This document shows positions 5,453 to 62,709 of a stretch of 64,000 nt of DNA, piece by piece (positions within the stretch are counted from its first letter, which is position 1; each line of letters begins with the position of its first letter). The DNA is from Acidobacteriota bacterium (GTDB taxonomy: Bacteria; Acidobacteriota; Vicinamibacteria; Vicinamibacterales; JAKQTR01): contig JBAXOX010000011.1 of NCBI GenBank assembly GCA_037133015.1, positions 4,479-68,478 of the forward strand. The letters are read 5' to 3'. The notes under the pieces were generated by a model that saw only the letters and a program-made list of their open reading frames with translations, was not told the DNA's origin and searched no databases. The position numbers and the translations under genes were made by a program.

Positions 5453-8193
5453 TCGGACGGCTGCTTGGTTCGTACCGCGTCCTGTCGAAGGTCGGCGAAG
5501 GCGGGATGGGCGAGGTCTACCGCGCTCGCGATTCGAAACTGAATCGCGACGTGGCGATCAAGATCTTGCCTGAGGCATTTGCCGCCGACCCGGAGCGCCG
5601 GGCGCGGTTCGCGCGTGAGGCGCAGGTGCTTGCCGCCCTCAATCATCCGCACATCGCGGCCATCTACGCCGTCGAAGAGGGTGGCATGCCCGCGCCGCTG
5701 TCGGCCGCCGGGCCAGCCGGGCCGTCGGCCCAGACACCGTTCCTCGTGATGGAGCTGGTCGAAGGCCCGACGCTCGATGCGCGCATCGCCGGCAGGCCCG
5801 TCCCGATCCCGGAAGCGCTGGCCATCGCCGCGCAGATTGCCGACGCGCTCGATGCGGCGCACGAAAAGGGGATCGTCCACCGCGACCTCAAGCCCGCCAA
5901 CATCAAGGTGCGCGACGACGGCACGGTGAAGGTGCTGGACTTTGGTCTCGCCAAAGCGCTCGGTGCGGAGGGGGCGAGCGCGACGGCGGATGCCATCAAC
6001 TCGCCGACGATGACCGCCATGGCGAGTCGGATGGGCGTGATCCTGGGCACCGCGGCCTACATGAGCCCGGAGCAGGCCCGGGGCCGGGCGGTCGACAAGC
6101 GGACCGATATCTGGGCGTTCGGGTGCGTGCTCTACGAAATGCTGACGGGGCAGCGGGCGTTTCCCGGCGAGGATGTGGCGGAGTTCATCGCGGCCGTGCT
6201 GACGCGCGAGCCGGACTGGATCCGGCTGCCCGCGGCGATGCCCCCGCGCATCGTCGACCTCCTGAGACGCTGCCTGAAGAAGGACCCGCGCGAGCGGCTG
6301 CGCGACATCGGTGACGCGCGGGCAGAGATCGCGGAGGCGCTGGCGGGGCCAGGCGCCCCGAACGGGCCATCCCCGACCGCTGTGCCCGCGTCGTCATCAC
6401 ACGCCGCTTCGCGTCGTCGCCCGATCGTGGTTGCCGGCATCCTGGCGTTGGCCGCCGGCGTCGCCCTTGGCGCGGGAGCCGTCCTGCTGAGCCGGCCTCG
6501 CGCGGAGGTGCCCTCGTCAGTACGGTCGGCGATGCTCTTGCCGTCGGCCGCGCCGATGCTCCGCGGTTCCACGCCGAGTCTCGCGATCTCGCGCGACGGC
6601 CGACGCCTGGTCTACGCGGCGCAGGAAGGGCCGTCCACGGCGCTCTTCGTCCGCGACCTCGACGGCCGCGTGGCGACCAGGGTGGCCGGCTCGGATGGGG
6701 GACACCTGCCCTTCTTCTCACCCGACGGGACGTGGGTTGGGTTCTGCACCGAGGACGGCCGGTTGCTGAAGCTGCCCGTGGTCGGGGGCAATCCGACATT
6801 GCTCGCGCCTGCCACCGATGTGCGGGGGGCGAGCTGGGGCGACGACGGCTGGATCGTGTTCGCCCGCGATGTGGCCGGGGGCCTCTACCGCGTGCGGGAG
6901 ACGGGCGGCGCCGTGGAGCCGCTGACCACCCCCGAATGGACCTCCGGGGAGAAGACCCACCGCTACCCCGACGTGCTGCCAGGGGCGGGCGCCATCATCT
7001 ACACGATCGGGGCCGCCGACCTTGTCTCCTACGCCGGCTCACGCGTCGTCGTGCGCGTGGTGAAGACCGGCGAGACGCGCACGCTCATCTCGGGCGGGAT
7101 GTGCGCCCGCTACGTGGCACCTGGGTTCCTGGTGTACGCCAGGACCGGGTCGCTGTGGGCGGTGGCGTTCGACGTCGAGCGGCTGATCGTGTCTGGCGAT
7201 CCCGTCGAGATCCTGCCGGACCTCGCCACGCGGGCCGGGTATGCCGTCGGCCACTTTGCCGTGTCTCGAAACGGGGTGCTCATCTACGCTGCCGGCGGAG
7301 AGCAGCCGATCGAGCGGAGGGTCGTGCGTGTCGACCGCCGCGGGCGGCCGGAACCGCTCATCTCGGAAAAGGGCGGCTATATAGAGGCCGTGCTCTCGCC
7401 AGACGGACGCTACGTGGCGTTCACTCCCGAAAGCGCCAACGATGCCATCTGGTCGTACGACACGAGTCGCGGGACCTCCGCGAGGTTGACGAGGGACTGG
7501 AACTGCGGAAGCCCGGCGTGGTCTCCGGACGGACTGCGCCTGTTCTTCAAGTGCAACAAGGAACGTGACTACTCGCACATGTTCACGATGAAGTCGGATC
7601 GCGGCCAGCTCGAACCGCTGCTCGACCAGCGCATCCAAAGTGTGGATGGACAGGTGCGCGGCGACACGCTCGCGTTTTCGACGTGGGACCCCGCGACCAA
7701 GGAAGACCTGTGGCTGCTGTCTGTGGCCAGTCGGCGGGTGCGGGTTTGGCTGAAGAGCCAGTTCAGTGAGGGGGCGCCGGCTCTTTCGCCCGACGGCCGG
7801 TGGCTCGCGTACGCGTCGGATGAATCCGGCCGTTGGGAAGTGTACGTGGCGCCCATCGACGATCGCGACCGACGCGTGCAGATTTCGTCGGGCGGCGGCC
7901 ACCAGGTGCGGTGGCACCCGAACGGCCGAGAACTCTTCTACACCAACGGCACGCGATTGATGTCGGTGACAGTGCAGGGCGCACCCGCGGGCGTACGCCC
8001 GGGCCAGCCGGCGTTGGTGTTCGAAGGAGGCCCGTACTACGTCGAACTGGGTGGCGGCCCGGTCTTCACCGTCGCGCCGGACGGTAATCACTTCGTCATG
8101 ATCGAGGATCCGCCCGCCGCCGCGCCTGCGACCGATCTGAACCTCGTGACCAACTGGACCACAGAACTCAGGCGCAAGCTCGGGGTGAAGTAG
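5449..8193 (+). CDS. Membrane Ser/Thr protein kinase with C-terminal TolB-like (PD40/WD40-like) beta-propeller
   Basis: Hanks kinase motifs: GEGGMGEVYRARD, VAIKIL, HRDLKPANI, DFGLAK, AYMSPEQ. One TM segment (IVVAGILALAAGVALGAGAVLL). The ~550-aa C-terminal part carries repeated FSPDG/LSPDG propeller motifs. Confidence 0.9.
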   Translation: MIGRLLGSYRVLSKVGEGGMGEVYRARDSKLNRDVAIKILPEAFAADPERRARFAREAQVLAALNHPHIAAIYAVEEGGMPAPLSAAGPAGPSAQTPFLVMELVEGPTLDARIAGRPVPIPEALAIAAQIADALDAAHEKGIVHRDLKPANIKVRDDGTVKVLDFGLAKALGAEGASATADAINSPTMTAMASRMGVILGTAAYMSPEQARGRAVDKRTDIWAFGCVLYEMLTGQRAFPGEDVAEFIAAVLTREPDWIRLPAAMPPRIVDLLRRCLKKDPRERLRDIGDARAEIAEALAGPGAPNGPSPTAVPASSSHAASRRRPIVVAGILALAAGVALGAGAVLLSRPRAEVPSSVRSAMLLPSAAPMLRGSTPSLAISRDGRRLVYAAQEGPSTALFVRDLDGRVATRVAGSDGGHLPFFSPDGTWVGFCTEDGRLLKLPVVGGNPTLLAPATDVRGASWGDDGWIVFARDVAGGLYRVRETGGAVEPLTTPEWTSGEKTHRYPDVLPGAGAIIYTIGAADLVSYAGSRVVVRVVKTGETRTLISGGMCARYVAPGFLVYARTGSLWAVAFDVERLIVSGDPVEILPDLATRAGYAVGHFAVSRNGVLIYAAGGEQPIERRVVRVDRRGRPEPLISEKGGYIEAVLSPDGRYVAFTPESANDAIWSYDTSRGTSARLTRDWNCGSPAWSPDGLRLFFKCNKERDYSHMFTMKSDRGQLEPLLDQRIQSVDGQVRGDTLAFSTWDPATKEDLWLLSVASRRVRVWLKSQFSEGAPALSPDGRWLAYASDESGRWEVYVAPIDDRDRRVQISSGGGHQVRWHPNGRELFYTNGTRLMSVTVQGAPAGVRPGQPALVFEGGPYYVELGGGPVFTVAPDGNHFVMIEDPPAAAPATDLNLVTNWTTELRRKLGVK

Positions 8194-47313: not shown

Positions 47314-47550
47314 CTACTGCTTTTCGTAGAGCGCCACAGAGTTGATGGTCTGTCCCAGGGGATTGGTGCCCTTGGCCGTGATGGTATAGGTCTTCCTGTC
47401 GCTCGACACGACATTGGTTGTGGTGATGGTGACCTTGCCATCCTTCTTGTAGACGAATGTCACCGTGTTGGCATCGACTCGAGTGCCAGCCGAGGCGTCG
47501 CCGCTCAGACTGTTACTGATTGGGTAGTCCTTTCCGTCGTAGACGCCCAC
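47314..47550 (-). pseudogene. 3' half of a lipocalin-like small secreted protein gene (truncated paralog)
   Basis: The 78 codons align with the C-terminal halves of the 163/164-aa genes at 51830 and 61447 (YDGKD.P..., VYKKDGKVT.T.T, ...VALYEKQ). The in-frame sequence upstream of 47550 has no similarity, no signal peptide and no copy of the conserved leader. Confidence 0.6.
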
Positions 47551-47729
47551 CTTCGCGCTCCTGGCGGCAAGAGAACCTCGTCCACAGACTTGCTGACGGC
47601 GGCCCGATCGCGCCAGCGGTTTATGAGGATTGCCGGCCTCACCAAAGTCGATTACGCTCTTGAAGATCCCGCTTCTTCCGCGTCAACGATGTGCGTCGCG
47701 CTCCCGCTTATGTTCGTGGTGCCCTGAGA

Positions 47730-50283: not shown

Positions 50284-51600
50284 TTACGACGCCGTATCGG
50301 CGAAGGTCCGATCGTCGGAGTGTCGAGCCAGCGTGGCCGGATCGAGCCAGATCGCGGCGATGAGTCCCAGCGCCGCCGCCAACGACAACCACACGCCCGG
50401 AATGGCTCGATTGCCGGTCACGTGAATCAGGTAAGTTGACACAGCAGGAGTGAAGCCCCCGAAAATTCCGGTGGCCAGACTGAAGGCCAGCGAGAACCCC
50501 GCCGCGCGTACGTGCGCGGGCATCACTTCCGCCAGATGCACGACCATCGCGCCGTTGTAGCTCGCGAAGATCAGCGAAAACCAAAGCTCGACCAGCAGCA
50601 GCCGTGAAAACGACGGCGCCGCCACGAGCCAGGCGAGCACGGGGTAGGCCGTCAGCAGCGCCACGGTCGCCACGATGATCAGTTGCGGTCTGCGGCCGAC
50701 CCGGTCCGAGACGGCACCGAACACCGGCAGCAGCGCGAAGTTGGAGAGGCCGACGCACATGGTCACCAGGAACGCATCGGTCGAGTTCAGGTGTAACACC
50801 AGGGTGCCGAACGTGGGCGTGTAGGCCGTGATGAGGTAGAAGGTGACCGTCGTCAGGATCGACAGCATCATGCCCAAGCCGACCAGCCGCCAGTTCCTGG
50901 CGAGTGCCCGCACGACCTCGCGTGGCGTCGGCTTGTGCACGCGGCGCAGGAAGTCTGGGGTTTCCGTGAGCGACCGGCGAAGGACGAACACGAACGGGAT
51001 GAGGGCGCAGCCCAGCAGAAGAGGCAGGCGCCATCCCCACTCCTGCATCTGGACGGGAGAGAGCACTTGCGTCAGGAGGAGCCCGATCGAGGCGGCGAAC
51101 ATGACGGCGACCTGCTGGCTGGCCGATTGCCAGCTGCAGTAGAAACCCCGATGCCCGGGCGTGGCGATCTCGGCCAGGTAGATCGAGACGCCGCCCACTT
51201 CGACCCCGGCCGACAGACCCTGCACGAGGCGGCCGGCCAGCACCAGCAGCGGCGCGAGCAGGCCGAGCGTCGCGTAACCGGGGACGCACGCGATCGCGAG
51301 CGTGCCGAACGCCATCAGGGCCAGCGTCAAGACGAGGCCCTTGCGGCGCCCGTGATGGTCGATGTAGCTGCCAAGGACGACCGCGCCGATCGGCCGCATC
51401 AGGTACCCGGCCCCGAACGTCATAAAGGCCAGCATCAGCGAGGTATACGCGCTGCCGGCCGGAAAAAACGCCCGCGCGATCGCGCTCGCGTAGTACCCGA
51501 AGACCATGAAATCGAACATCTCGAAGAAGTTCCCCGTCGCGACGCGGAACACCGCACCGAACTTCGAGGGCGAGGAGGCCAAGGCAGAAGGTGCTGTCAA
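50284..51600 (-). CDS. tcuC: MFS citrate/tricarballylate-proton symporter family transporter
   Basis: 438 aa. GNFFEMFDFMVFGYYA and GSYIDHHGRRKGL are typical of the CitA/TcuC MFS subfamily. It is convergent with tcuAB. Confidence 0.7.
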   Translation of the reverse strand: MTAPSALASSPSKFGAVFRVATGNFFEMFDFMVFGYYASAIARAFFPAGSAYTSLMLAFMTFGAGYLMRPIGAVVLGSYIDHHGRRKGLVLTLALMAFGTLAIACVPGYATLGLLAPLLVLAGRLVQGLSAGVEVGGVSIYLAEIATPGHRGFYCSWQSASQQVAVMFAASIGLLLTQVLSPVQMQEWGWRLPLLLGCALIPFVFVLRRSLTETPDFLRRVHKPTPREVVRALARNWRLVGLGMMLSILTTVTFYLITAYTPTFGTLVLHLNSTDAFLVTMCVGLSNFALLPVFGAVSDRVGRRPQLIIVATVALLTAYPVLAWLVAAPSFSRLLLVELWFSLIFASYNGAMVVHLAEVMPAHVRAAGFSLAFSLATGIFGGFTPAVSTYLIHVTGNRAIPGVWLSLAAALGLIAAIWLDPATLARHSDDRTFADTAS

Positions 51601-51829: not shown

Positions 51830-52321
51830 CTACTGCCTCTCGTAGACCTCCACAAAGTCAACGCTCTTTCCCTTGGCATCCGTGCTTTTGCCCGTGATGG
51901 TAATCGCCTTCCCGTCGCCTGATAAGACAGAGGTCTGCGTGACGGTGACCTTCCCATCTTTCTTGTAGACGCTGTTCACCGTATTGGAACCGACCCGCGT
52001 GGCCGCCACCACGTCGCGGTTCGGACTGCCCGTGACGGGGGAGTCCTTCCCGTCGTAGTTCGTGGTGTATATCCAGTGGCTCACGCTGCCGTCCGCATTC
52101 ACCCCATCCACGGTCACCTTGACGCCCGCGCCAGCCGCCACGATGGTGAAGGTGCTGTTCTTGGGCGCCTCGCCGCCGGTGTACGTCGATTTTGCGAGGT
52201 TCAGCTTCCAGCTGCCAATACGCGGATTATTGGTCTGCGCGAGTGCCGCGCCAGCCAGTACGACCACCAACCCAAGTGCAACCGCTGCGAACAGAGACGC
52301 CTGACGGGTTCTTGCCTGCAT
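51830..52321 (-). CDS. Small secreted lipocalin-like protein (paralog A)
   Basis: Signal peptide MQARTRQASLFAAVALGLVVVLAGAALAQ. It then reads IGSWKLNLAKS (lipocalin-like-domain signature) and is beta-rich. GGAGGAGG lies upstream of the ATG. Confidence 0.7.
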   Translation of the reverse strand: MQARTRQASLFAAVALGLVVVLAGAALAQTNNPRIGSWKLNLAKSTYTGGEAPKNSTFTIVAAGAGVKVTVDGVNADGSVSHWIYTTNYDGKDSPVTGSPNRDVVAATRVGSNTVNSVYKKDGKVTVTQTSVLSGDGKAITITGKSTDAKGKSVDFVEVYERQ

Positions 52322-52361
52322 GGTTCCTCCTCCGACTGTGCGCCGAGGTTTACGCCGACTT

Positions 52362-52448
52362 GTGACGGATGGGCGAGTCTACTTCAATTCCGGCGGGTGA
52401 GCGCGGAGAAATTCGACAGAAGAATCGGACGAGAAATCGGACGACGCA
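52362..52448 (-). promoter_or_regulatory. Conserved leader/promoter element with three 12-mer direct repeats GAGAAAT(T/C)(C/G)GAC (plus-strand reading)
   Basis: A 58-nt block (GTGACGGATGGGCGAGTCTACTTCAA...CGACAG) differs at only 4 positions from 61983-62040. It is followed by repeat copies at 52406-52417, 52420-52430 (degenerate) and 52431-52442. It sits between the kinase stop (52457) and the start of the lipocalin-like gene. Confidence 0.5.
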
Positions 52449-52456
52449 AGGACCAT

Positions 52457-55117
52457 CTACTTCAGACCCTTGATCACATACAGCTGGCTGGCGTCCCTGT
52501 TGTAGCCGTAGGCGGTCGCGCCGCTGGGAGACACGATGAGGTTGCTCAGGCCGCTGACCAGCGACTTGAGCGGATGGACCGTCTTCCAGGCGGATCGGCG
52601 ACCGGATGCGACGTCCAGTCGGTCGATCTTGCCCTCGACCAACTGTCGCTGGTAGACAAACAGCGACTGCCCGTCCGCGCTCCAGCCGGCCACGTTATCG
52701 CCGTCCAGCGTACCCGCCACCGGATGGCAGACCGGCTTGGTGATCGTGCATGTCACGACCTTTCCGGCCGCGTCCACCGCGACGATGCGCGACCCGTCCG
52801 GCGAGATCAGATTCGTTCCCATGACGGGCAGTGTCACACCGCCCGGCAGCAGCGTTGTTATCTGGCGGCCGTCCGCCGACAGAATGAAGACCGATGGCCT
52901 GGACCCGGGGCGCGTGGCTTGAATCACCAGCCGCCCATCGGGAAGCCAGCCCCCCCATGAGACCACCTCGACCGGGCCCATGTCGACGATCTGCGGTTGC
53001 CCGGTGCCGGTGGGCACGATCGAGAGCTTCGGCGGTGTCTGCAGCGATCGAACCAGCGCCTTCTTGCCGTCCGGAGACAGTCCCACGCCCGACCCGTCCG
53101 CAATCCGGACAGGCTGCGCCTCCTTCGGCTGCCACGCGTAGACAGACCCTAGAAATCCGCCGCTGTCGCCACTCCCGTCGAATAGAAGCGTGTGGCTCGT
53201 CGAGAACGCAGTCAGCGTGGCCGACTCTCGCCACGACCGATCGAGAGGCGTCGGATCGGATCCCTCGACCACTTCAATGCGAGAGCTGATGCGATCGAAC
53301 GACACGAGGGCGTCGCCCTCGGCCGAGATGTCGTGCAGTGTGATCGCGCCCGGCGCACGAAACACCGGGCGCTGGTGTCCGGCAAGGTCCAGGCTGAAGA
53401 TCGTGGTCTGTCTTCCCGAGGTCTCTGTTGCCGCAAACCAGACCTCGTTCGACGGCGTCCAGGCGAGCGCCCACCAGTCGAAGAACGGCGAGCTTTGGGT
53501 GACCAGTGTCCCGGACCGGTCGACGATGTTCACTCTGTACGCAGAGGCCACGTGGAGGTCGAAGTAGGCCACGTGGGCTCCTGACGGGGAGACTCGCGGC
53601 GCCGCGTAGATGCTCATGCCTTCCGATGTTCGGCCAGCGGTGACAGGCACCTCGGCCAGCACGTGCCCGACCGGGTACTCCAGCGCCTGGCTGTGCGCAT
53701 CGTCGCGAACCACAGCCACCGTGTTGTTGGGACCGAAGTCGGCGAACCTCACCCTCTCCAGTTCTGGGCGTCTGGCGCCACCGGTGAGCGAGCCCTTTGC
53801 CAACGTCCCAATCCGCCAGTAGGGATTGCCGGCGGAGACGGCGGATTCGTTGAGAATGGCGAGTTCTCCCGAGCGCGAGACCCCAAGCAGGTCGGCTCCC
53901 GGAAATCCGAGCGACCGGTATTCGGAGCTGTCGACGCTGGTGAGGTACACGCCGCGCGGCTGTCGTTCCCAGTCGGCGCTGTAGACGATGGTGCGGCCGT
54001 CGGCCGCAAAGCGTGCGGCAAAGACGAACCCGTCCTCGAAGGACACGGGTTTGAAGGTGAGGTCAGCGGCCCCCGCCGATTTCGGTGCAGACGCGCCGCG
54101 GCCCAGATACCCGGCGCTCGCGCCGAGGACGAGGGCGGCGACAACAGCCGACGCGATGAGGAGACGCGCCCGCGGGCGCCGCGCGGACCCGACCACCGCC
54201 GCACCGCTGAGGGCGGTGCCGGACGCCGATCCAGACAGCGCCTCGAGCGCAAACGCGATGTCGCGCGCGTTCTGAAAACGCTCGTTTACGTTCTTCTCCA
54301 GACAGTGCCGAATGATGCGATCGAGGGCGGGCGACAGATCCGGCCGCGAGCCGACCAGTTCCGGCGGGTCGAGGGTCAGGATTGCCGTCATCGTGTCGGC
54401 CGCCGTGTCGCGCTGATACGCGCGCTGGCCGCTCACCATTTCGTAGAGCACCGCACCCAACGCAAACAGATCGGCGCGCGCATCGACGGCCTGACCGCGA
54501 ACCTGCTCGGGCGCCATGTAGCCGACGGTGCCCAACACGGAGCCGGGATCGGTGGCGGCCATCGTCTGCATACCGCCCGAGTTCTCGGCCGCTGTCGCGT
54601 GTCGCGCGAGACCGAAATCGAGGATCTTCACCTGCCCGTCGTCGAGCAGGAAGATATTCTCCGGCTTGAGGTCGCGATGGACGATGAGCTTGCCGTGCGC
54701 GGCCCCGAGGCCTCGCGCGATCTGCACGGCGATGTCGACCGCTTTGCGAACCGGTAGCGCGCCGCCGGACAATCGTTCCCGCAGCGTCTGTCCCGCGAGC
54801 AACTCCATGACGATGTAGACCGCGGCCTGGCCGGGGCCGGCCTGCCCCAAGCCACCAGAAGAGGTCTCAGGTTCGTGGAGGCCCGTGTCGAAGATGGCGA
54901 TAACGTTGGGATGCGACAGGGCGGCAACCGCCTGCGCTTCGCGTTCGAACCGTGCCCGCCGGCCAGGATCGTCAGCGAACGAAAGCGGCAGGACTTTAAT
55001 CGCGACGTCGCGGCCAAGGCGCGGGTCTTTCGCCTTGTACACCTCTCCCATCCCGCCGGCACCGATGGCAGAGACGATGTCGTACGGGCCGAGTCTGGTT
55101 CCTGGCGCGAGGCTCAT
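52457..55117 (-). CDS. Membrane Ser/Thr protein kinase with TolB-like beta-propeller (paralog 2)
   Basis: ATG at 55117 (MSLAPGTRLGPYDIV) with AGGAG 7 nt upstream. Kinase motifs GAGGMGEVYKAKD, VAIKVL, HRDLKPENI, DFGLAR, GYMAPEQ. One TM segment (LLIASAVVAALVLGASAGYL). The C-terminal region has propeller repeats (SPDG..). Confidence 0.9.
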   Translation of the reverse strand: MSLAPGTRLGPYDIVSAIGAGGMGEVYKAKDPRLGRDVAIKVLPLSFADDPGRRARFEREAQAVAALSHPNVIAIFDTGLHEPETSSGGLGQAGPGQAAVYIVMELLAGQTLRERLSGGALPVRKAVDIAVQIARGLGAAHGKLIVHRDLKPENIFLLDDGQVKILDFGLARHATAAENSGGMQTMAATDPGSVLGTVGYMAPEQVRGQAVDARADLFALGAVLYEMVSGQRAYQRDTAADTMTAILTLDPPELVGSRPDLSPALDRIIRHCLEKNVNERFQNARDIAFALEALSGSASGTALSGAAVVGSARRPRARLLIASAVVAALVLGASAGYLGRGASAPKSAGAADLTFKPVSFEDGFVFAARFAADGRTIVYSADWERQPRGVYLTSVDSSEYRSLGFPGADLLGVSRSGELAILNESAVSAGNPYWRIGTLAKGSLTGGARRPELERVRFADFGPNNTVAVVRDDAHSQALEYPVGHVLAEVPVTAGRTSEGMSIYAAPRVSPSGAHVAYFDLHVASAYRVNIVDRSGTLVTQSSPFFDWWALAWTPSNEVWFAATETSGRQTTIFSLDLAGHQRPVFRAPGAITLHDISAEGDALVSFDRISSRIEVVEGSDPTPLDRSWRESATLTAFSTSHTLLFDGSGDSGGFLGSVYAWQPKEAQPVRIADGSGVGLSPDGKKALVRSLQTPPKLSIVPTGTGQPQIVDMGPVEVVSWGGWLPDGRLVIQATRPGSRPSVFILSADGRQITTLLPGGVTLPVMGTNLISPDGSRIVAVDAAGKVVTCTITKPVCHPVAGTLDGDNVAGWSADGQSLFVYQRQLVEGKIDRLDVASGRRSAWKTVHPLKSLVSGLSNLIVSPSGATAYGYNRDASQLYVIKGLK

Positions 55118-55289
55118 CGAGCACTCCTGCCCGACGTCACCGGGCACCTGATTCGTAGGTACGCGACCTCACGTGCACCGAGACGACTGCCGGGGGCAAT
55201 CCATGTAGGGAAACCTGACGGTCATTATAGCCGTGTTAGCGCGGTATCATGATATACATTTGGTTGTACTGTATGTATATTACGAAAGC

Positions 55290-56423
55290 ATGATCAGCCG
55301 ACCCTTCTGGCAGCGCCGGCTCGAGCAAGCGTGGCACGACGCCCCGATTGCCTGGCTCTGCGGGGTTCGTCGCTCCGGGAAGACCACACTCGCAGCGGCC
55401 CTCGGATCCAAGCGGATGTTCCATGTGAACTGTGACCTGCCGGTGACGGAAGACATGGTTCGGGACCCGCAGGTCTTCTTCCGCTCCGTCGGCAGACCCG
55501 TCGTCGTCTTTGACGAGATCCACCAACTTCGGGACCCTGCCCGCCTCCTGAAGATCGGCGCAGACGGGTTTCCGAAGCTGAAGATCCTCGCGACCGGTTC
55601 GTCGGCGCTTGCCGCCAGCAGGAAGTTCCGCGACACGTTGACGGGGCGGAAGCGGACGGTCCACCTGCTTCCTGTTCTGTGGGAAGAGCTCGACGCCTTC
55701 GGCGTGACGCTGACCGATCGCCTGTTCCGAGGCGGGCTGCCGCCCGCGCTGCTCGCCGACGCCAAGACCCCGGCGTTCTACCGGGAGTGGCTGGATTCGT
55801 TCTTCGCGCGGGACATCCAGCGCCTCTTCGGATTCCGGGACATCAACCGCTTCAACGCGTTCTTCGAGTACGTCCTGCGGCAAAGCGGCGGGCAATTCGA
55901 GATCACCTCCGCCTCGCGCGACCTTGGCATTACGCGACCCACGGTCGAGAGCCATCTGCGTGCGCTCGAGATCACACATGCAGCCACGGCGATTCGGCCG
56001 TTCCATGGCGGGGGTCAGAACGAGCTGACCAAGCAGCCAAAGGTCTATGCGTTCGACACCGGGATGGTGAGTTTCGCGCGCGGGTGGGACCCGCTCCGCC
56101 CCGACGACCTCGGCGTGCTCTGGGAGCATCTGGTGCTCGAACACCTCCAGGCGCACGTCCCTGACACGCCCGTGCGCTATTGGCGGGACAAGGCCCAGCA
56201 CGAGCTCGACTTCGTGCTCGCGACTCGACGCAATGCCGTGGATGTCATCGAATGCACGTGGAATCCCGCCGACTTCGACGTCACGGCGCTTCGCGTCTTT
56301 CGCGGCTACTACCCCAATGGACGGAACTTCCTCGTCACACCATCCGGTGATCCGGCCTACACCAAACAGTTCGGCAGGCTGGACGTGCGCGTCTGCACAC
56401 CGAGCGGACTGCTGCTCACATAG
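55290..56423 (+). CDS. AAA-family ATPase with DUF4143-like C-terminal domain
   Basis: ATG at 55290 follows an unusually AT-rich stretch. Walker A GVRRSGKTT, Walker B VVVFDEIH. The C-terminal WEHLVLEHL...ELDFVL region matches AAA_14/DUF4143 proteins. Confidence 0.7.
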   Translation: MISRPFWQRRLEQAWHDAPIAWLCGVRRSGKTTLAAALGSKRMFHVNCDLPVTEDMVRDPQVFFRSVGRPVVVFDEIHQLRDPARLLKIGADGFPKLKILATGSSALAASRKFRDTLTGRKRTVHLLPVLWEELDAFGVTLTDRLFRGGLPPALLADAKTPAFYREWLDSFFARDIQRLFGFRDINRFNAFFEYVLRQSGGQFEITSASRDLGITRPTVESHLRALEITHAATAIRPFHGGGQNELTKQPKVYAFDTGMVSFARGWDPLRPDDLGVLWEHLVLEHLQAHVPDTPVRYWRDKAQHELDFVLATRRNAVDVIECTWNPADFDVTALRVFRGYYPNGRNFLVTPSGDPAYTKQFGRLDVRVCTPSGLLLT

Positions 56424-56570: not shown

Positions 56571-59306
56571 CTACTTCTGCCCCGCCGCCAGCCAGTTGAC
56601 GACGACGGTGATGAAGGAGGAACTCCGGCGCTGTTCAAGCACTTTGACGAGAAATCGATTGCCGTCCTTGGCGACGGCGTACTGACGATGGTTGTTGCCC
56701 GTGCCGGTGCCGGAGTAAACAGCGCCGGTGGGAAAGAGCGCCTTGGGCACGCCGGCCTCGAAGTCCTTCGCCGTGGAGACGCTCGCCGACGTCAATGTGC
56801 CGTCCAATGCGAGAAAGAATAACTCTTTGCCGTCGTCCCGCCACATCGGCAACGTGCCGCCGTCGCGCGACACCATGTAACTGCCGCCCGCGGCGGGAAA
56901 CGGCCGGACGTAGACCTCGGGGCGGCGGGATTCGTTCGAGTCGTACGCGATCCAGCGCCCGTCCGGCGAGAATGCTGCGTTGTCCTCGTCGTACGGCGTC
57001 CGCAGGAAGAGCACGGGTTTCGTGTCGCCGGAGAGCGGAAGCAACCACAGGTCGAAGCCCGTTGCGGTGGCCTGATCGCTGTACGCGAGCAAGCGCCCGT
57101 CGCGCGACCAGTCCGTCACGTAGTTCGGCGTATCCGACTTCAACGCCAGTTTCTCCGGGCTGCTTTGGTTTGCCGGCCTGATGAAGATGTTCGCCGGACC
57201 ACCTCGATTCGACACAAACGCAATCTGAGAGCCATCGGGTGACCAGACGGGCCCGAAATCGGCTGCCGGATCGAACGTGAAGCGCGAGGGCGCGGCGGCA
57301 CGCGCGAGGTCGATCAGCCAGACGTCGAGGTTGCCCGGCGACCCGGTCAGCAGCCCCACGGCCACGCGGCGCTCATCCGGACTGAGCGCAATGTTGTAGT
57401 AGGCCCCGATATCGCCTGCCGTGCCGAGCGGCGTGCCGGCCCGGTCGAGCCACGTGGGTCGTGCCGTTCGTCGTCCGCTGCCGGATACGTACGTCAGCAC
57501 GTTGCTCGTCGTCACCGAAAACGCGCCGTATGCCGTATCGTCGACGCCGACCTGCTCGGCCACCGACACCGCGTCCGCGGTCGTTTGCCGCGTGTTGACA
57601 TCGAACGACTGCGCCATCAGGCTCCCGCCGCGTGCGAACAACAGATGCCCCGCCGCGTACAGGCCATTCGAGTCCGATGGCGCGATGGCCACGCCCTCCT
57701 TCGAGTCGAGCGAGCCCGTGCGAATCTCGCCGGTCGTGCCGTCGCCGGTCCCGACGAAGTAGAGGAAATGGCGGCCGTCCGGCAGAAACGTCGCCCACCG
57801 GTGGGACGTCTCGCCTTTCGCGAGTGCCGTCACCGGCGCGGGTGCCCCGCCGGCCGACGTCACGCGCTGAAGCGGGCCGTTGAGGGTGGGGGAGAAGAGG
57901 ATGACGTTGTCGCGATTCCACGTGCCGCCCCGCTCGGACGGAGCATCGCAGAGCTCCGCCGGAGGTCCGCCGATCGCCGGCACCGTCTTCAACTTGTTGG
58001 CGCTGAAGAAGCCGATGGTTCGGCTATCGGGTGACCAGAACGGATGCGTGGCCCACTCGGTGCCCGGCAGGGGACGCGCCACGAGCGTCGAGAACGGCCG
58101 GATCCACAGCGCAAGGGCACCTCGCAGCGAGGCGACGAAGACAACCTGCCGTCCGTCGGGAGAGACGGCAAACTGCGGCGTCGGCCCGCCGAAGAGCGAA
58201 TTCTCCGGCGCGCCCATCGTGAACTGGATCGGATCCACCACCGGCGCGGCTTCGCGACGCTGCAGCACGATGATCGTCGCGGCGCCGACCAGCGCGACAC
58301 CGAGCACCGCGGCCGCGATCCACGCGAACCGCTCGCGGTTTCGCCGATGCGCGACGACGGGCGCGGGTACCCCGGCCGCGCTGCCACCATCGGCAATCCA
58401 CCGCAGTTGGAGCAGCAGGTCGTGTGCCGTCTGAAACCGGGCGTCGGGATCTTTTGCGAGGCATACACCGACGACGTGGTCGAGCGCGGGCGATGCCACC
58501 GGAGTCATCTGACTGACTGGCGGGGGCTGCTCCTTGAGAATCGCGCCGAGCAGGCCCGCTTGGCTCTTGCCGGCAAACGCGCGACGGCCTGTGAGCATCT
58601 CGAAGAGCACGGCGCCAAACGCGAAGATATCGGTGCGGGCGTCGGCTTCCTCGCCTTCGATCTGCTCGGGCGCCATGTACTGGAAGGTGCCGAGGATCGT
58701 GCCCTGGGCGGTGAGCGCCTGGCCGGGCGGCCTGGGTGACGTCGCGAGCGCGGTCGGTGCGGCCCCGGACACGGCGCCGGCCGGTCCGCTCTTCGCGAGG
58801 CCGAAGTCGAGCAACTTCGCCTGCGTGGCGTCCGATCGCGCGCCGCCCAATTTCACCAGCATGATGTTGCCGGGCTTCAGATCGCGATGCACGATGCCCT
58901 GTCGATGCGCCTTGTCGAGCGCGCTCGCGATCTCGGTTCCGATCTTGAGCGCGTCGGCCAGCGGCAGCGCGCCTCGCTCGAGCCGCGTGGCGAGCGTCTC
59001 GCCCTCGAGGTACTCCATCACGAGGTAGTCGACAACTGACCCGCCGGCTCCCTGGGGTGCGCCGGTCGACCCCACGTCGAACAGCGTGCAGATGTTCGGG
59101 TGATTCAGGGCCGAGATGCTTTTGGCTTCGCGCTCGAAACGGGCCTTGAAGTCGGGATCGGCGGCAAGCGCGGCGGGTAGAACCTTGATGGCGACCGTGC
59201 GATCAAGGCGCGTGTCGTTCGCCTTGTAGACCTCGCCCATTCCGCCGGCCCCGAGCGGTCCGAGGATTTCATAGGAGCCGAGCGTTGTTCCCGTGGCGAG
59301 CCTCAT
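56571..59306 (-). CDS. Membrane Ser/Thr protein kinase with TolB-like beta-propeller (paralog 3)
   Basis: GAGGMGEVYKAND, VAIKVL, HRDLKPGNI, DFGLAK, QYMAPEQ. TM segment FAWIAAAVLGVALVGAATIIVL. Propeller repeats WSPDS/LSPDE/WSPDG/FSPDG. The C-terminus reads ITVVVNWLAAGQK. Confidence 0.9.
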   Translation of the reverse strand: MRLATGTTLGSYEILGPLGAGGMGEVYKANDTRLDRTVAIKVLPAALAADPDFKARFEREAKSISALNHPNICTLFDVGSTGAPQGAGGSVVDYLVMEYLEGETLATRLERGALPLADALKIGTEIASALDKAHRQGIVHRDLKPGNIMLVKLGGARSDATQAKLLDFGLAKSGPAGAVSGAAPTALATSPRPPGQALTAQGTILGTFQYMAPEQIEGEEADARTDIFAFGAVLFEMLTGRRAFAGKSQAGLLGAILKEQPPPVSQMTPVASPALDHVVGVCLAKDPDARFQTAHDLLLQLRWIADGGSAAGVPAPVVAHRRNRERFAWIAAAVLGVALVGAATIIVLQRREAAPVVDPIQFTMGAPENSLFGGPTPQFAVSPDGRQVVFVASLRGALALWIRPFSTLVARPLPGTEWATHPFWSPDSRTIGFFSANKLKTVPAIGGPPAELCDAPSERGGTWNRDNVILFSPTLNGPLQRVTSAGGAPAPVTALAKGETSHRWATFLPDGRHFLYFVGTGDGTTGEIRTGSLDSKEGVAIAPSDSNGLYAAGHLLFARGGSLMAQSFDVNTRQTTADAVSVAEQVGVDDTAYGAFSVTTSNVLTYVSGSGRRTARPTWLDRAGTPLGTAGDIGAYYNIALSPDERRVAVGLLTGSPGNLDVWLIDLARAAAPSRFTFDPAADFGPVWSPDGSQIAFVSNRGGPANIFIRPANQSSPEKLALKSDTPNYVTDWSRDGRLLAYSDQATATGFDLWLLPLSGDTKPVLFLRTPYDEDNAAFSPDGRWIAYDSNESRRPEVYVRPFPAAGGSYMVSRDGGTLPMWRDDGKELFFLALDGTLTSASVSTAKDFEAGVPKALFPTGAVYSGTGTGNNHRQYAVAKDGNRFLVKVLEQRRSSSFITVVVNWLAAGQK

Positions 59307-61446: not shown

Positions 61447-61941
61447 CTACTGCTTGTCGTACACGACCACCGAGTTGACAGTCTGCCCCGCGGCATTCGT
61501 GCCCGTGCCCGCGATGGTGTCCATCTTCCCATCGCTGGACACCGTGTGGGTCTGAGTGACGGTGACCTTTCCACCCTTCTTGTAGATGTATCTCGTCGTA
61601 TTGGCATCGAGACGGGTGGCAGCCACGATATCGCCATACGCACAGTTGCCCGTGATGGGGTTGTCCTTCCCGTCGTAGCTGGCCGAGTATGCCCACTTCG
61701 CCACAGTGCCGTCCGCACTCACCGAGTCAACTTTGACCTTGAAGCCAGCGCCCGCCGCCTCTACTGTGAAGGCGGCGCTCTTGGGTGCCTTGCCCGCGCT
61801 GTATTTCGACGTCGCCAGATTGATCTTCCAGGTGCCGATCATTGAATTACTGGACTGCGCGAACGCCGCGCCTCCAAGCAGAACCACCAACCCACATGCG
61901 ACGACCGCGAATAGACACGCCTGACGGATTCTTGCCTGCAT
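61447..61941 (-). CDS. Small secreted lipocalin-like protein (paralog B)
   Basis: MQARIRQACLFAVVACGLVVLLGGAAFAQ followed by IGTWKINLATSKY. It is colinear with paralog A along its whole length. Confidence 0.7.
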   Translation of the reverse strand: MQARIRQACLFAVVACGLVVLLGGAAFAQSSNSMIGTWKINLATSKYSAGKAPKSAAFTVEAAGAGFKVKVDSVSADGTVAKWAYSASYDGKDNPITGNCAYGDIVAATRLDANTTRYIYKKGGKVTVTQTHTVSSDGKMDTIAGTGTNAAGQTVNSVVVYDKQ

Positions 61942-61982
61942 GGGAACCTCTCGTTCTCTGGTGCCGACGTTGACGCTGAGTG

Positions 61983-62058
61983 GTGACGGATGGGCGAGTC
62001 TACTTCAACTCCAGCGAGTGAGCGCGGAGAAATCCGACAGGAGAAATCCGACGACGCA
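61983..62058 (-). promoter_or_regulatory. Second copy of the conserved leader/promoter element, two 12-mer repeats
   Basis: It contains the same 58-nt block as 52362-52419 (4 substitutions). GAGAAATCCGAC occurs at 62027-62038 and 62041-62052, a 14-bp period. Confidence 0.5.
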
Positions 62059-62088
62059 GCGCGTCGCGGTCGCCTTGGCGAATGCGCC

Positions 62089-62244
62089 TCAGCGTCTCAG
62101 CGCCTCCGCATCGTTGAGGACGACCGTGACCGGCGGGGTCGAGACCGCCCTCTTCTCGCCGGTTGTGGTCGTGAGTACGAGAAAACGCTGCGCGTCGGGC
62201 GCGACCCCAACCAGATCAGAAAGCCGCAGGTTGACCCCAATCCG
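62089..62244 (-). pseudogene. 3'-terminal remnant of a fourth TolB-propeller Ser/Thr kinase gene
   Basis: Hand translation gives RIGVNLRLSDLVGVAPDAQRFLVLTTTTGEKRAVSTPPVTVVLNDAEALRR-stop. This matches the kinase C-termini (FTVAPDGNHFVMIED...LNLVTNWTTELRR; YAVAKDGNRFLVKV...ITVVVNW). An in-frame TAA lies at 62245-62247. No kinase or propeller sequence lies upstream; hicB starts at 62293. Confidence 0.55.
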
Positions 62245-62292: not shown

Positions 62293-62490
62293 ATGAAATA
62301 CAAAGTCGCCCTGAGAAAGTCGAAGGAAGGCTACAGCGTTTCGTGTCCCGGCCTGCCGGGTTGCTGGTCGCAAGGCAAGACCGAACGAGAGGCCCTCGAG
62401 CACATCCAATTTGCCATTCGGGAGTACCTCGAAGCGGTCGCCATCATCTCAAAACACTCCAAGATTCGGGAAGTGGAAGTCGCGATATAA
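62293..62490 (+). CDS. hicB: HicB-family antitoxin (short, UPF0150-type)
   Basis: MKYKVALRKSKEGYSVSCPGLPGCWSQGKTEREALEHIQFAIREYLEAV is the typical HicB N-terminal domain. G+C is visibly low (~48 % on the line I counted). Confidence 0.8.
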   Translation: MKYKVALRKSKEGYSVSCPGLPGCWSQGKTEREALEHIQFAIREYLEAVAIISKHSKIREVEVAI

Positions 62491-62496
62491 ACGGCC

Positions 62497-62709
62497 GTGT
62501 CAAAGCTAACCGGTGTCAATCATCTTCGGGCGGTTCGAGCTCTCGAGAAGGCCGGGTTCACCATTGCCACCCAAGGCAAACACATCGTGATGACTGACGG
62601 CACTCGAATCGTCACGGTGCCTCGCAACAATCCGGTCAACCAATACACGACGGGCGGTATCGTTCGCGACGCCGGCATCACAATCGAGCAGTTCAAGAAG
62701 TTGCTCTGA
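62497..62709 (+). CDS. hicA: HicA-family mRNA interferase toxin
   Basis: 70 aa. LRAVRALEKAGFTIATQGKHIVMTDG..IVTVPRNNP...GGIVRDAGITIEQFKKLL fits the YcfA/HicA dsRBD-like pattern. It starts 6 nt after hicB. Confidence 0.75.
   Translation: MSKLTGVNHLRAVRALEKAGFTIATQGKHIVMTDGTRIVTVPRNNPVNQYTTGGIVRDAGITIEQFKKLL

Follow-up and report, generated by a model that had tools for sequence, protein, structure and literature searches.

The window analysed here, a 64,000-nt stretch of an Acidobacteriota contig, contains two paralogous genes for small secreted proteins; these genes, the neighbouring kinases and a kinase remnant are all on the minus strand. Gene A (51830-52321) encodes 163 amino acids and gene B (61447-61941) encodes 164. 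Upstream of gene A is kinase 2 (52457-55147), a Ser/Thr kinase (Pkinase) with PD40 beta-propeller repeats, whose stop codon is at 52457-52459. A check of the coordinates confirmed that the spacer between this stop and the ATG of gene A measures 135 nt and occupies exactly 52322-52456; we refer to it as leader A, and to the region upstream of gene B (61942-62089) as leader B. The original prediction described a module of kinase, non-coding element and gene that is present twice in the window. This description holds for gene A, whereas the region upstream of gene B carries only the 3' end of a PD40 kinase gene (62090 to about 62215; ~125 nt or ~42 codons, ending in VTVVLNDAEALRR and the stop codon). 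Kinase 1 (56571-59306) is intact but does not adjoin gene B. The remnant is the counterpart of the 3' ends of intact kinases that precede the same promoter in three related loci (L093, L097 and L103), and it also matches the kinase 3' ends immediately upstream of the promoter in L110 and L114. Beyond it lies a HicB/HicA pair on the opposite strand, and a fragment of a third paralogue, which has no promoter, is found at 47314-47565.

Read in the sense of the gene, leader A consists of the kinase stop, 14 nt, three tandem boxes (GTCCGATTTCTC, GTCCGATTCTTC followed by a single T, and GTCGAATTTCTC), a spacer CGCGCTCACCCGCCGGAATTGAAG, a 20-nt core TAGACTCGCCCATCCGTCAC, 31 nt, a Shine-Dalgarno sequence GGAGGAGG (52326-52333), AACC and the ATG; the first box therefore begins 14 nt downstream of the kinase 2 stop codon. 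Leader B has two GTCGGATTTCTC units with a period of 14 nt, followed by the same block as in leader A. A 9-nt repeat, TGAAGTAGA, is found both at the kinase 2 stop and at the putative -10 hexamer of A described below (~0.06 expected by chance, as a rough estimate).

An Acidobacteriota MAG encodes a hypothetical protein identical to the product of gene A, and relatives of this product come from soil and freshwater-sediment Acidobacteria, several of them labelled Vicinamibacterales. The encoded protein matched no Pfam family at E <= 0.001. It has a signal peptide followed by the motif G-[TS]-W-K-[LI]-N, and the AlphaFold (AF2) model, with a pLDDT of 87, consists of a signal helix and an all-beta barrel. 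Foldseek matches in the PDB were FABP (fatty-acid/bile-acid-binding) proteins, lipocalins and nitrobindin, with E values down to 8e-5 and TM scores of 0.47-0.57, and “lipocalin-like” is a reasonable description of the modelled fold. The signal peptide, the motif and the barrel model are shared with bacterial calycin/lipocalin-like proteins such as Lipocalin_5 (PF13924), but the encoded protein differs from these in having no Pfam match. A true Lipocalin_5 gene adjoins two homologues in L120, and an hhalign comparison with its product gave a probability of only 1.9%.

To compare the two leaders, we aligned the block at 52362-52419 in A with that at 61983-62040 in B. The alignment showed 4 substitutions in 58 nt (93% identity) and included an identical 26-mer, for which 0 matches were expected in shuffles. 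The coding regions are far more diverged, with 72% identity in DNA and 59% in protein, and with dN of 0.28 and dS of 0.64 (NG86) compared with a divergence of 0.07 in the block. If the block had diverged at the coding rate, at most 4 differences in 58 nt would arise with a probability of 5e-5, a value that applies to one stretch and is uncorrected for the number of possible positions. The similarity of the two leaders is beyond chance by far, and the central observation of the original prediction, a 58-nt block with only 4 substitutions in front of two strongly diverged genes, is confirmed. A recent segmental duplication that also covers the flanking coding DNA had been named as the case that would speak against a regulatory element. 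Such a duplication is not consistent with the unequal identities of the block (93%) and the coding sequence (72%, dS 0.64), or with the part of the leader closest to the gene (-40 to -1), which is only 62% identical.

For a wider comparison, about 40 related leaders from other Acidobacteria were gathered in three ways: from 80 homologue loci in species-representative genomes, from contigs encoding specific homologues, and by scanning JGI metagenomes with a DNA pattern of the core, TRGACTCSCCCATCCGTCAC. Because the metagenome leaders were chosen by an exact core, conservation of the core among them is circular, and only 13 protein-ascertained leaders are unbiased in this respect. The core scan returned 32 sites in JGI metagenome contigs, about 27 of which precede the ATG of a homologue by 59-62 nt, including one in L093 whose gene carries an in-frame deletion. 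It also returned three chance matches inside unrelated genes (L089, L099 and L100), two sites before internally deleted copies (both in L090) and one before an SDR gene (L101). The combination of the upstream box and the hexamer, CCGATT-N26-28-TAGAC[TG], was found 33 times in 1.58 Mb of related loci, compared with 0.25 expected; in 29 of these matches the gene that follows is an intact homologue and in 2 it is a deleted one, and the remaining two precede an SDR gene and a kinase gene, respectively. That the block recurs at a constant distance before a homologous gene in 29 of 33 cases supports the view that it is a cis-regulatory cassette. At the SDR gene of L101 the junction falls directly after the core, and in L097 the box, the spacer and TAGACG are located ~230 nt upstream of the kinase gene; these two exceptions show that other genes can capture the cassette. 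Tandem gene pairs are common in the relatives, and the second gene of a pair retains the ribosome-binding part of the leader but not the upstream part, which supports the assignment of the upstream part as a promoter.

Within the window, a profile of the family leader matched leaders A and B only, and the core is not enriched elsewhere. A two-sequence nhmmer profile run against the 80 homologue loci matched L001 only, and a larger profile added L012 and L025, which limits the cassette to a subclade. A mobile element or REP-like repeat was rejected, since the core invariably accompanies this gene family. The consensus leader of the family is GTCGTCCGATTTCCnCCGCTCACACGCCAAGACTGAGG TAGACT CGCCCATCCGTCAC AACTCACnnTAnAACCTCGGCACACAGACAGAGAGGCTCCC ATGCAGGCAAGAAT. 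In 18 full-length instances, the mean pairwise identity of the leader outside the core is 0.67, compared with about 0.78 for coding DNA, and conservation is concentrated in the core, in AACCTCGGC and in the first ~36 nt of the coding sequence.

The 20-nt core is identical in A (52362-52381) and B (61983-62002), and it would comprise a -10 element, the discriminator and the early transcribed region. The hexamer at its upstream end is TAGACT in both (52376-52381 in A, 61997-62002 in B). At the aligned position, the 13 protein-ascertained leaders have TAGACT (8), TAGGCT (2) and also TACAGT, TAAGCT, TACGCT and TGGACT. The first T is kept in 13 of 13 leaders, the A in 12 of 13 (the exception is TGGACT in L083/L084) and the last T in 13 of 13, and the middle positions are variable. 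Hexamers of the form TA[GA][GA]CT cluster between -46 and -86 upstream of homologues; in the 80 genome loci, 11 of 15 fall within two 20-nt bins from -80 to -41. Because the first, second and last positions are kept while the middle varies, the TAnnnT hexamer is most likely a -10 box of the sigma-70 type. In distant relatives it is preceded by TGG (TGG-TAGGCT, TGG-TACAGT, TGG-TAAGCT or TGG-TACGCT), which corresponds to an extended -10 (TGn) and was seen in L012, L025, L081, L086 and L124. This extension is absent from A and B (AAG-TAGACT) and from most of the subclade (AGG-TAGACT). Canonical promoters are present at the same place in some distant homologues, namely TTGACG-17-TAAGCT in L014 and TGATATAAT, which is of the TGnTATAAT type, in L029.

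We found no TTGACA-like -35 element at 16-18 nt from the -10: the 17-nt position is occupied by CCGCTC or GCGCTC, a CT[CG]ACA motif is only 13-15 nt away, and a consensus promoter scan detected no sigma-70 pair in leader A or B. The TTGAAG and CCGTCAC motifs of the original prediction are both found in the leaders. However, a role for TTGAAG as a promoter hexamer did not survive the family comparison, in which the relatives have TGAGG, TAGGG or TGCGG at this position; moreover, TTGAAG directly abuts TAnnnT. Among other promoter classes, a sigma-54 promoter (TGGCAC-N5-TTGC) was absent on inspection by eye, and CRP/FNR palindromes did not fit. The -10 of sigma-28, GCCGATAA, resembles the upstream box, but there is no conserved TAAA -35, and the fixed quantity is the distance of the box to TAGACT.

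The 14-nt stretch after the hexamer, CGCCCATCCGTCAC, is conserved within a subclade, and 7 of the 13 protein-ascertained leaders keep at least 17 of the 20 nt of the core. The conservation of these 14 nt and of the first 36 nt of the coding sequence exceeds the needs of a plain promoter, and the promoter model leaves both unexplained. Obvious candidate causes are an operator that overlaps the start site and a constraint on the initiation of translation.

An alternative view of the core is that it belongs to a promoter for an ECF-type or other alternative sigma factor, in which CCGTCAC would supply a CGTC -10 and TTGAAG or GGAAT the -35, perhaps under the control of the neighbouring Ser/Thr kinases. 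CGTC is a common -10 of ECF promoters, and the promoter motif of ECF41 is TGTCACA-N16-CGTC (PMC3426412). The locus resembles known ECF promoters in that a conserved motif containing CGTC is located upstream of a gene for a small secreted protein in an ECF-rich phylum; in addition, CCGTCAC is invariant in the subclade and PD40 kinase genes are often nearby. The -35 motif and its spacing, however, do not fit. There is no AAC-containing -35 at 16-17 nt from CGTC, where the family has ACTGAGG; the GGAAT of the window is 19 nt from CGTC and is not conserved; and TCACAC is located 27 nt from CGTC, which is incompatible with TGTCACA-N16-CGTC. Furthermore, CGTC is lost in distant relatives that keep TAnnnT (CCCACCAC and CCCATCAC), and a Pfam scan of the ORFs of 46-64 kb of the window revealed no sigma-factor gene. 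The ECF context proposed in the original prediction is thus improbable.

We then considered the element upstream of the -10. In the family it is a box, CCGATTTCC, and in all leaders that could be aligned CCGATT(TCC) starts 32-34 nt ahead of the hexamer, even across unrelated intervening sequence (for example, in L081 and L124 compared with the subclade). The repeat unit of the original prediction is therefore a real conserved box, kept at a fixed distance from the likely -10. This distance places the box at about -45 to -37, near -41, and about -45 to -37 is where class II activators or the C-terminal domain of the RNA polymerase alpha subunit (alpha-CTD) bind. Within the window, neither the 12-mer (8 matches with up to 2 mismatches, compared with 4.9 expected) nor the consensus box (5 matches, compared with 3.8 expected) is enriched.

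The box could also be viewed as the U-rich tail and 3' arm of an intrinsic terminator that shields the gene from transcription of the kinase, with the repeats arising by slippage. In B, a GC-rich hairpin, CGACGCGCTGCGTCG, precedes the U-rich first box after the kinase remnant (62049-62066, minus strand), and a terminator consensus scan flagged CGACGCGCTGCGTCGTCG+GATTTCTCCT there. Moreover, about 15 of 33 leaders have a stem that ends exactly at ...CCGA before UUUCC, with differing 5' arms. On the other hand, the fold z-scores average only -0.45, the U tract comprises 3 nt, no hairpin is present in leader A, and CCGA is constant rather than covarying. A terminator would also have no need of the 32-34-nt distance to the -10, yet this distance is kept across unrelated spacers. 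We regard a terminator as a doubtful explanation for the box; at best it would be a secondary function. Between kinase 2 and the first box of A no terminator was detected, and read-through from the kinase may therefore also reach gene A.

The direct repeats were found as originally described, with three copies in A (at 52406, 52419 and 52431) and two in B (at 62027 and 62041) with a period of 14 nt. From the gene outwards, the boxes of A are GTCGAATTTCTC (52406-52417), GTCCGATTCTTC (52419-52430) and GTCCGATTTCTC (52431-52442), with spacings of 13 and 12 nt, and the gene-nearest box starts 34 nt upstream of the -10. In B, GTCGGATTTCTC occupies 62027-62038 and 62041-62052. In the family, by comparison, about 30 of 35 leaders have a single box. 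Tandem duplications limited to the box are present in A (12 and 13 nt), B (14 nt), L094 (12 nt), L115 (16 nt) and one copy in L092 (13 nt), so that the box was duplicated at least four, and probably five, separate times with periods of 12-16 nt. On this comparative evidence, the two or three direct repeats are local tandem duplications of a single ancestral box, and similar duplications in other lineages are independent, because the unit lengths differ. These unequal lengths speak against a strict helical phasing. There is no support for tandem sites as an ancestral design or as sites for a winged-helix response regulator, since most relatives have a single box and the periods of 12, 13, 14 and 16 nt do not match a phasing of 10-11 bp; a site of the OmpR/PhoB type was rejected for the same two reasons. 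The recurrent duplication suggests either selection for more protein-binding copies or a local tendency to slippage. The gene-nearest boxes of A and B deviate from the consensus CCGATT (CGAATT in A, CGGATT in B), and the extra copies may compensate for this deviation. An 11-nt inverted repeat between the box of B and the 5' end of its coding sequence was seen in B only.

A structured 5' leader RNA (a riboswitch, a thermometer or a start-codon hairpin) that controls translation is the least probable of the readings that we considered, and we regard it as very improbable. Within the first 12 codons, synonymous sites show unusual conservation (third positions 0.86, compared with 0.72), and RNAalifold proposed that the Shine-Dalgarno sequence takes part in a 4-bp CCUC/GAGG pairing and that a small hairpin covers the AUG. 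Both pairings are invariant, however, and hence uninformative, and CCUC is CGUC in B without a compensating change. RNAalifold applied to 24 leaders gave a consensus energy of -9.7 kcal/mol with a covariation term of +0.1 and a double change in 1 of 15 pairs. Single-sequence fold z-scores were about 0.1-0.7 for both strands of both leaders, and a scan of 45-64 kb against Rfam gave 0 matches at E <= 1. The leader is also predicted to be only ~48 nt long and is G-poor. The covariation check proposed with the original prediction therefore yielded no sign of a structured RNA, in agreement with the view that the block is a promoter.

To determine why the block is so similar in A and B, we compared its segments with the corresponding segments of the family. 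In the segment from the box to the -10 (-98 to -61), A and B are 0.89 identical and rank 1 of 17, with the next best at 0.66 and a family median of about 0.6. In the remainder of the leader (-40 to -1), their identity is 0.62 (rank 14-16 of 17), and from codon 31 onward (nt 91-489) it is 0.70 (rank 14-17 of 17). The coding sequence of B is 0.89 identical to L108 and that of A is 0.82 identical to L001, and in both of these relatives the spacer is of the ordinary consensus type. At least 8 derived states in the spacer are common to A and B and absent from the closest orthologue of either gene. Among them are GGA[A/G]TTGAAG in place of the AAGACTGAGG of the family, one additional base in TCTCCGCGC, and a box of the TTTCTC form; the 5' flank TGCGTCGTC is likewise shared. 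Thus, A and B are nearest neighbours in one segment while the flanks group with different orthologues, which is the pattern of gene conversion. Across the family, the identity of the upstream segment and that of the coding sequence are uncorrelated (r = -0.02), and for between-contig pairs of comparable coding divergence the 95th percentile of upstream identity is 0.81. Homogenised promoter pairs were seen in 3 of 8 within-contig pairs: the pattern recurs in L093 and L094 and not in five others, which indicates that such exchange is occasional rather than general.

These data argue against inferring constraint from a block that outdoes its genes in conservation. In the family as a whole, the spacer from the box to the -10 is less conserved (about 0.6) than the coding DNA (0.78), and only in this segment are A and B closest. 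Purifying selection alone, acting on a dense operator and promoter with a dedicated transcription factor at the tandem repeats and with no exchange between the paralogs, would account for the conservation of the core and the box across genomes and for the repeated duplication of the box. It would not account for a spacer that is free to vary in the family, at a level below that of the coding sequence, and is nevertheless 0.89 identical in A and B. Selection also keeps ancestral states and creates no shared new ones, such as the derived states described above, unless the regulator has changed; co-adaptation of both promoters to one changed regulator could explain the derived states shared by A and B. 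We consider selection alone unlikely. The simplest reading is that a tract of ~85 nt, from TGCGTCGTC to the end of the core (52362-52448 in A, 61983-62058 in B, minus strand), was copied between the paralogs by gene conversion. The promoter-upstream half of one paralog would have been copied onto the other, with both the direction and the mechanism being inferred, and the invariant 20-nt core would have provided a natural 3' anchor. The exchange would have been followed by 4 substitutions and one change in the number of repeat units. The likeness of A and B would then be partly due to a 20-nt core conserved in the subclade and partly to a ~40-nt spacer and box repeats specific to this genome.

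Taken together, the block probably serves as promoter and 5' untranslated leader for a multi-copy gene family that is lineage-specific and encodes small secreted beta-barrel proteins in uncultured Acidobacteria of soil and sediment; the likeness of A and B is probably in part the product of gene conversion. The original prediction was correct in calling it a promoter-type element rather than an RNA, while its choice of hexamers, its ECF and response-regulator suggestions and its argument from constraint alone were not upheld. In the proposed working, a holoenzyme, presumably with the primary sigma factor, would use TAGACT as the -10 in the absence of a -35. Protein contact at the CCGATTTCC box, by an activator or the alpha-CTD, would replace the missing -35 and be needed for transcription or enhance it. 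Since A and B have neither a -35 nor a TGn, the strength of these promoters must rest on such a putative activator or UP-like contact. Transcription is predicted to start about 6-7 nt downstream of the -10, around the A of CCCATCC (at about 52369-52370 in A and 61991 in B), and would give a leader of ~48 nt that is rich in C and A, poor in G and ends in a strong Shine-Dalgarno sequence, features that would favour translation. In B, a terminator-like hairpin precedes the boxes.

In a more far-reaching model, an undescribed activator linked to the neighbouring PD40 Ser/Thr kinases would bind at the CCGATTTCC box. Box, spacer and -10 would together make up a portable promoter cassette that is spread among paralogs by gene conversion, tuned in output by box copy number and occasionally captured by other genes (the SDR gene of L101 and the kinase gene of L097), with the barrel proteins and the kinases belonging to one sensory circuit. 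Kinases are present within a few kb in 13 of the 80 genome loci and in 14 of about 41 other loci. The window itself holds three kinases and a remnant in 64 kb, and the link to kinases is therefore indistinguishable from chance. We regard this model as speculative and unlikely to be correct.

Acidobacteria are abundant in soil and sediment and are mostly uncultured. To our knowledge, very little is known about their promoters, and our literature search found no promoter study on Acidobacteria. The cassette, which is ordinary in kind and does not reveal a new kind of system, offers a concrete, testable architecture for this group, in which a TAnnnT -10 without a -35 is combined with a box at a constant distance near -41. 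It also illustrates that non-coding DNA that outdoes its gene in conservation within a genome can mislead, because part of this conservation is constraint and part is copying between paralogs. A and B provide a clear example of promoter-limited exchange between paralogs.

Among known systems, the cassette most resembles activator-dependent (class II) and UP-element sigma-70 promoters, such as the PhoB pho-box and rrnB P1-type promoters, with which it shares a TAnnnT -10, the lack of a usable -35 and an element near -41 at a fixed distance; its extra upstream box copies resemble added activator or alpha-CTD sites. It differs from them in that its box is 9-10 nt long, single in most relatives and only mildly A/T-rich, and in that its periods are 12-16 nt compared with 10-11 bp for the pho-box. 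Classic cases of concerted evolution by gene conversion are tufA/tufB and the rRNA operons. As in these genes, a short tract of A and B is far more alike than its flanks and carries shared derived states. In contrast to these cases, the tract described here is confined to the promoter-upstream half (~85 nt) rather than to coding DNA, and the evidence for its exchange is comparative.

Among the islands conserved at the DNA level in the barrel-protein genes are the core of the putative promoter cassette (upstream box, spacer and core) and the start of the coding sequence. The first 36 nt of the coding sequence, ATGCAGGCAAGAAYCCGTCAGRCGTSTCT (minus strand, window 52286-52321 in gene A and 61906-61941 in gene B), are conserved as DNA across the family, including the third codon positions and an AGA arginine codon. 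The motif ATCCGTCA was found twice, once in this coding start and once in the promoter core about 64 nt upstream; in gene A, the coding copy of the motif reads ACCCGTCA.

The cassette was also found fused to genes that do not encode barrel proteins. The full box-to-core unit lies 5' of a short-chain dehydrogenase gene in one related contig (L101 2447-2620), and the box, spacer and TAGACG stand on the minus strand about 230 nt 5' of a PD40 kinase gene in another (L097 3482-3438). It is absent 5' of a third barrel-protein copy in the window (47314-47565, minus strand), which comprises only the C-terminal half (residues ~81-164, with 54-56% identity over this range) and is probably a pseudogene fragment.

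The 64-kb window contains three full-length Ser/Thr kinase genes and one remnant. The former lie at 5455-8157 (plus strand), 52457-55147 (kinase 2, minus strand) and 56571-59306 (kinase 1, minus strand); a Pfam scan, which took in kinases 1 and 2 of the three, identified PD40 beta-propeller repeats in both. Barrel-protein genes in many related contigs also adjoin such kinases, on either side, and a functional link between the two does not stand out against the high background frequency of such genes. Other neighbors are an AAA_14/DUF4143 ATPase gene between kinases 2 and 1 (55233-56423, plus strand) and an MFS transporter gene (50284-51600, minus strand), which follows gene A on the same strand at a distance of 230 nt.

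Exactly at the point where the kinase gene 5' of B ends prematurely lies a plus-strand pair (62293-62709) that encodes a 65-aa HicB-like antitoxin and a 70-aa HicA toxin; an insertion or rearrangement at this pair may have caused the truncation. Across the stop codon of the remnant, GCGCCTCAGC, GCGTCTCAGC and GCGCCTCCGC form a triplet with an 8-nt period (62084-62109). Kinase 3' ends located 5' of the putative promoter cassette in related contigs carry a duplicated stop region, GCGCTGAGGCGCTGAGGCGC.

Relatives (L081, L085, L086, L113, L120, L122 and L124) carry barrel-protein genes as tandem pairs or triplets separated by gaps of 40-96 nt, with the promoter restricted to the first gene of each set. 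The third member of the set in L120 is a true Pfam Lipocalin_5 gene.
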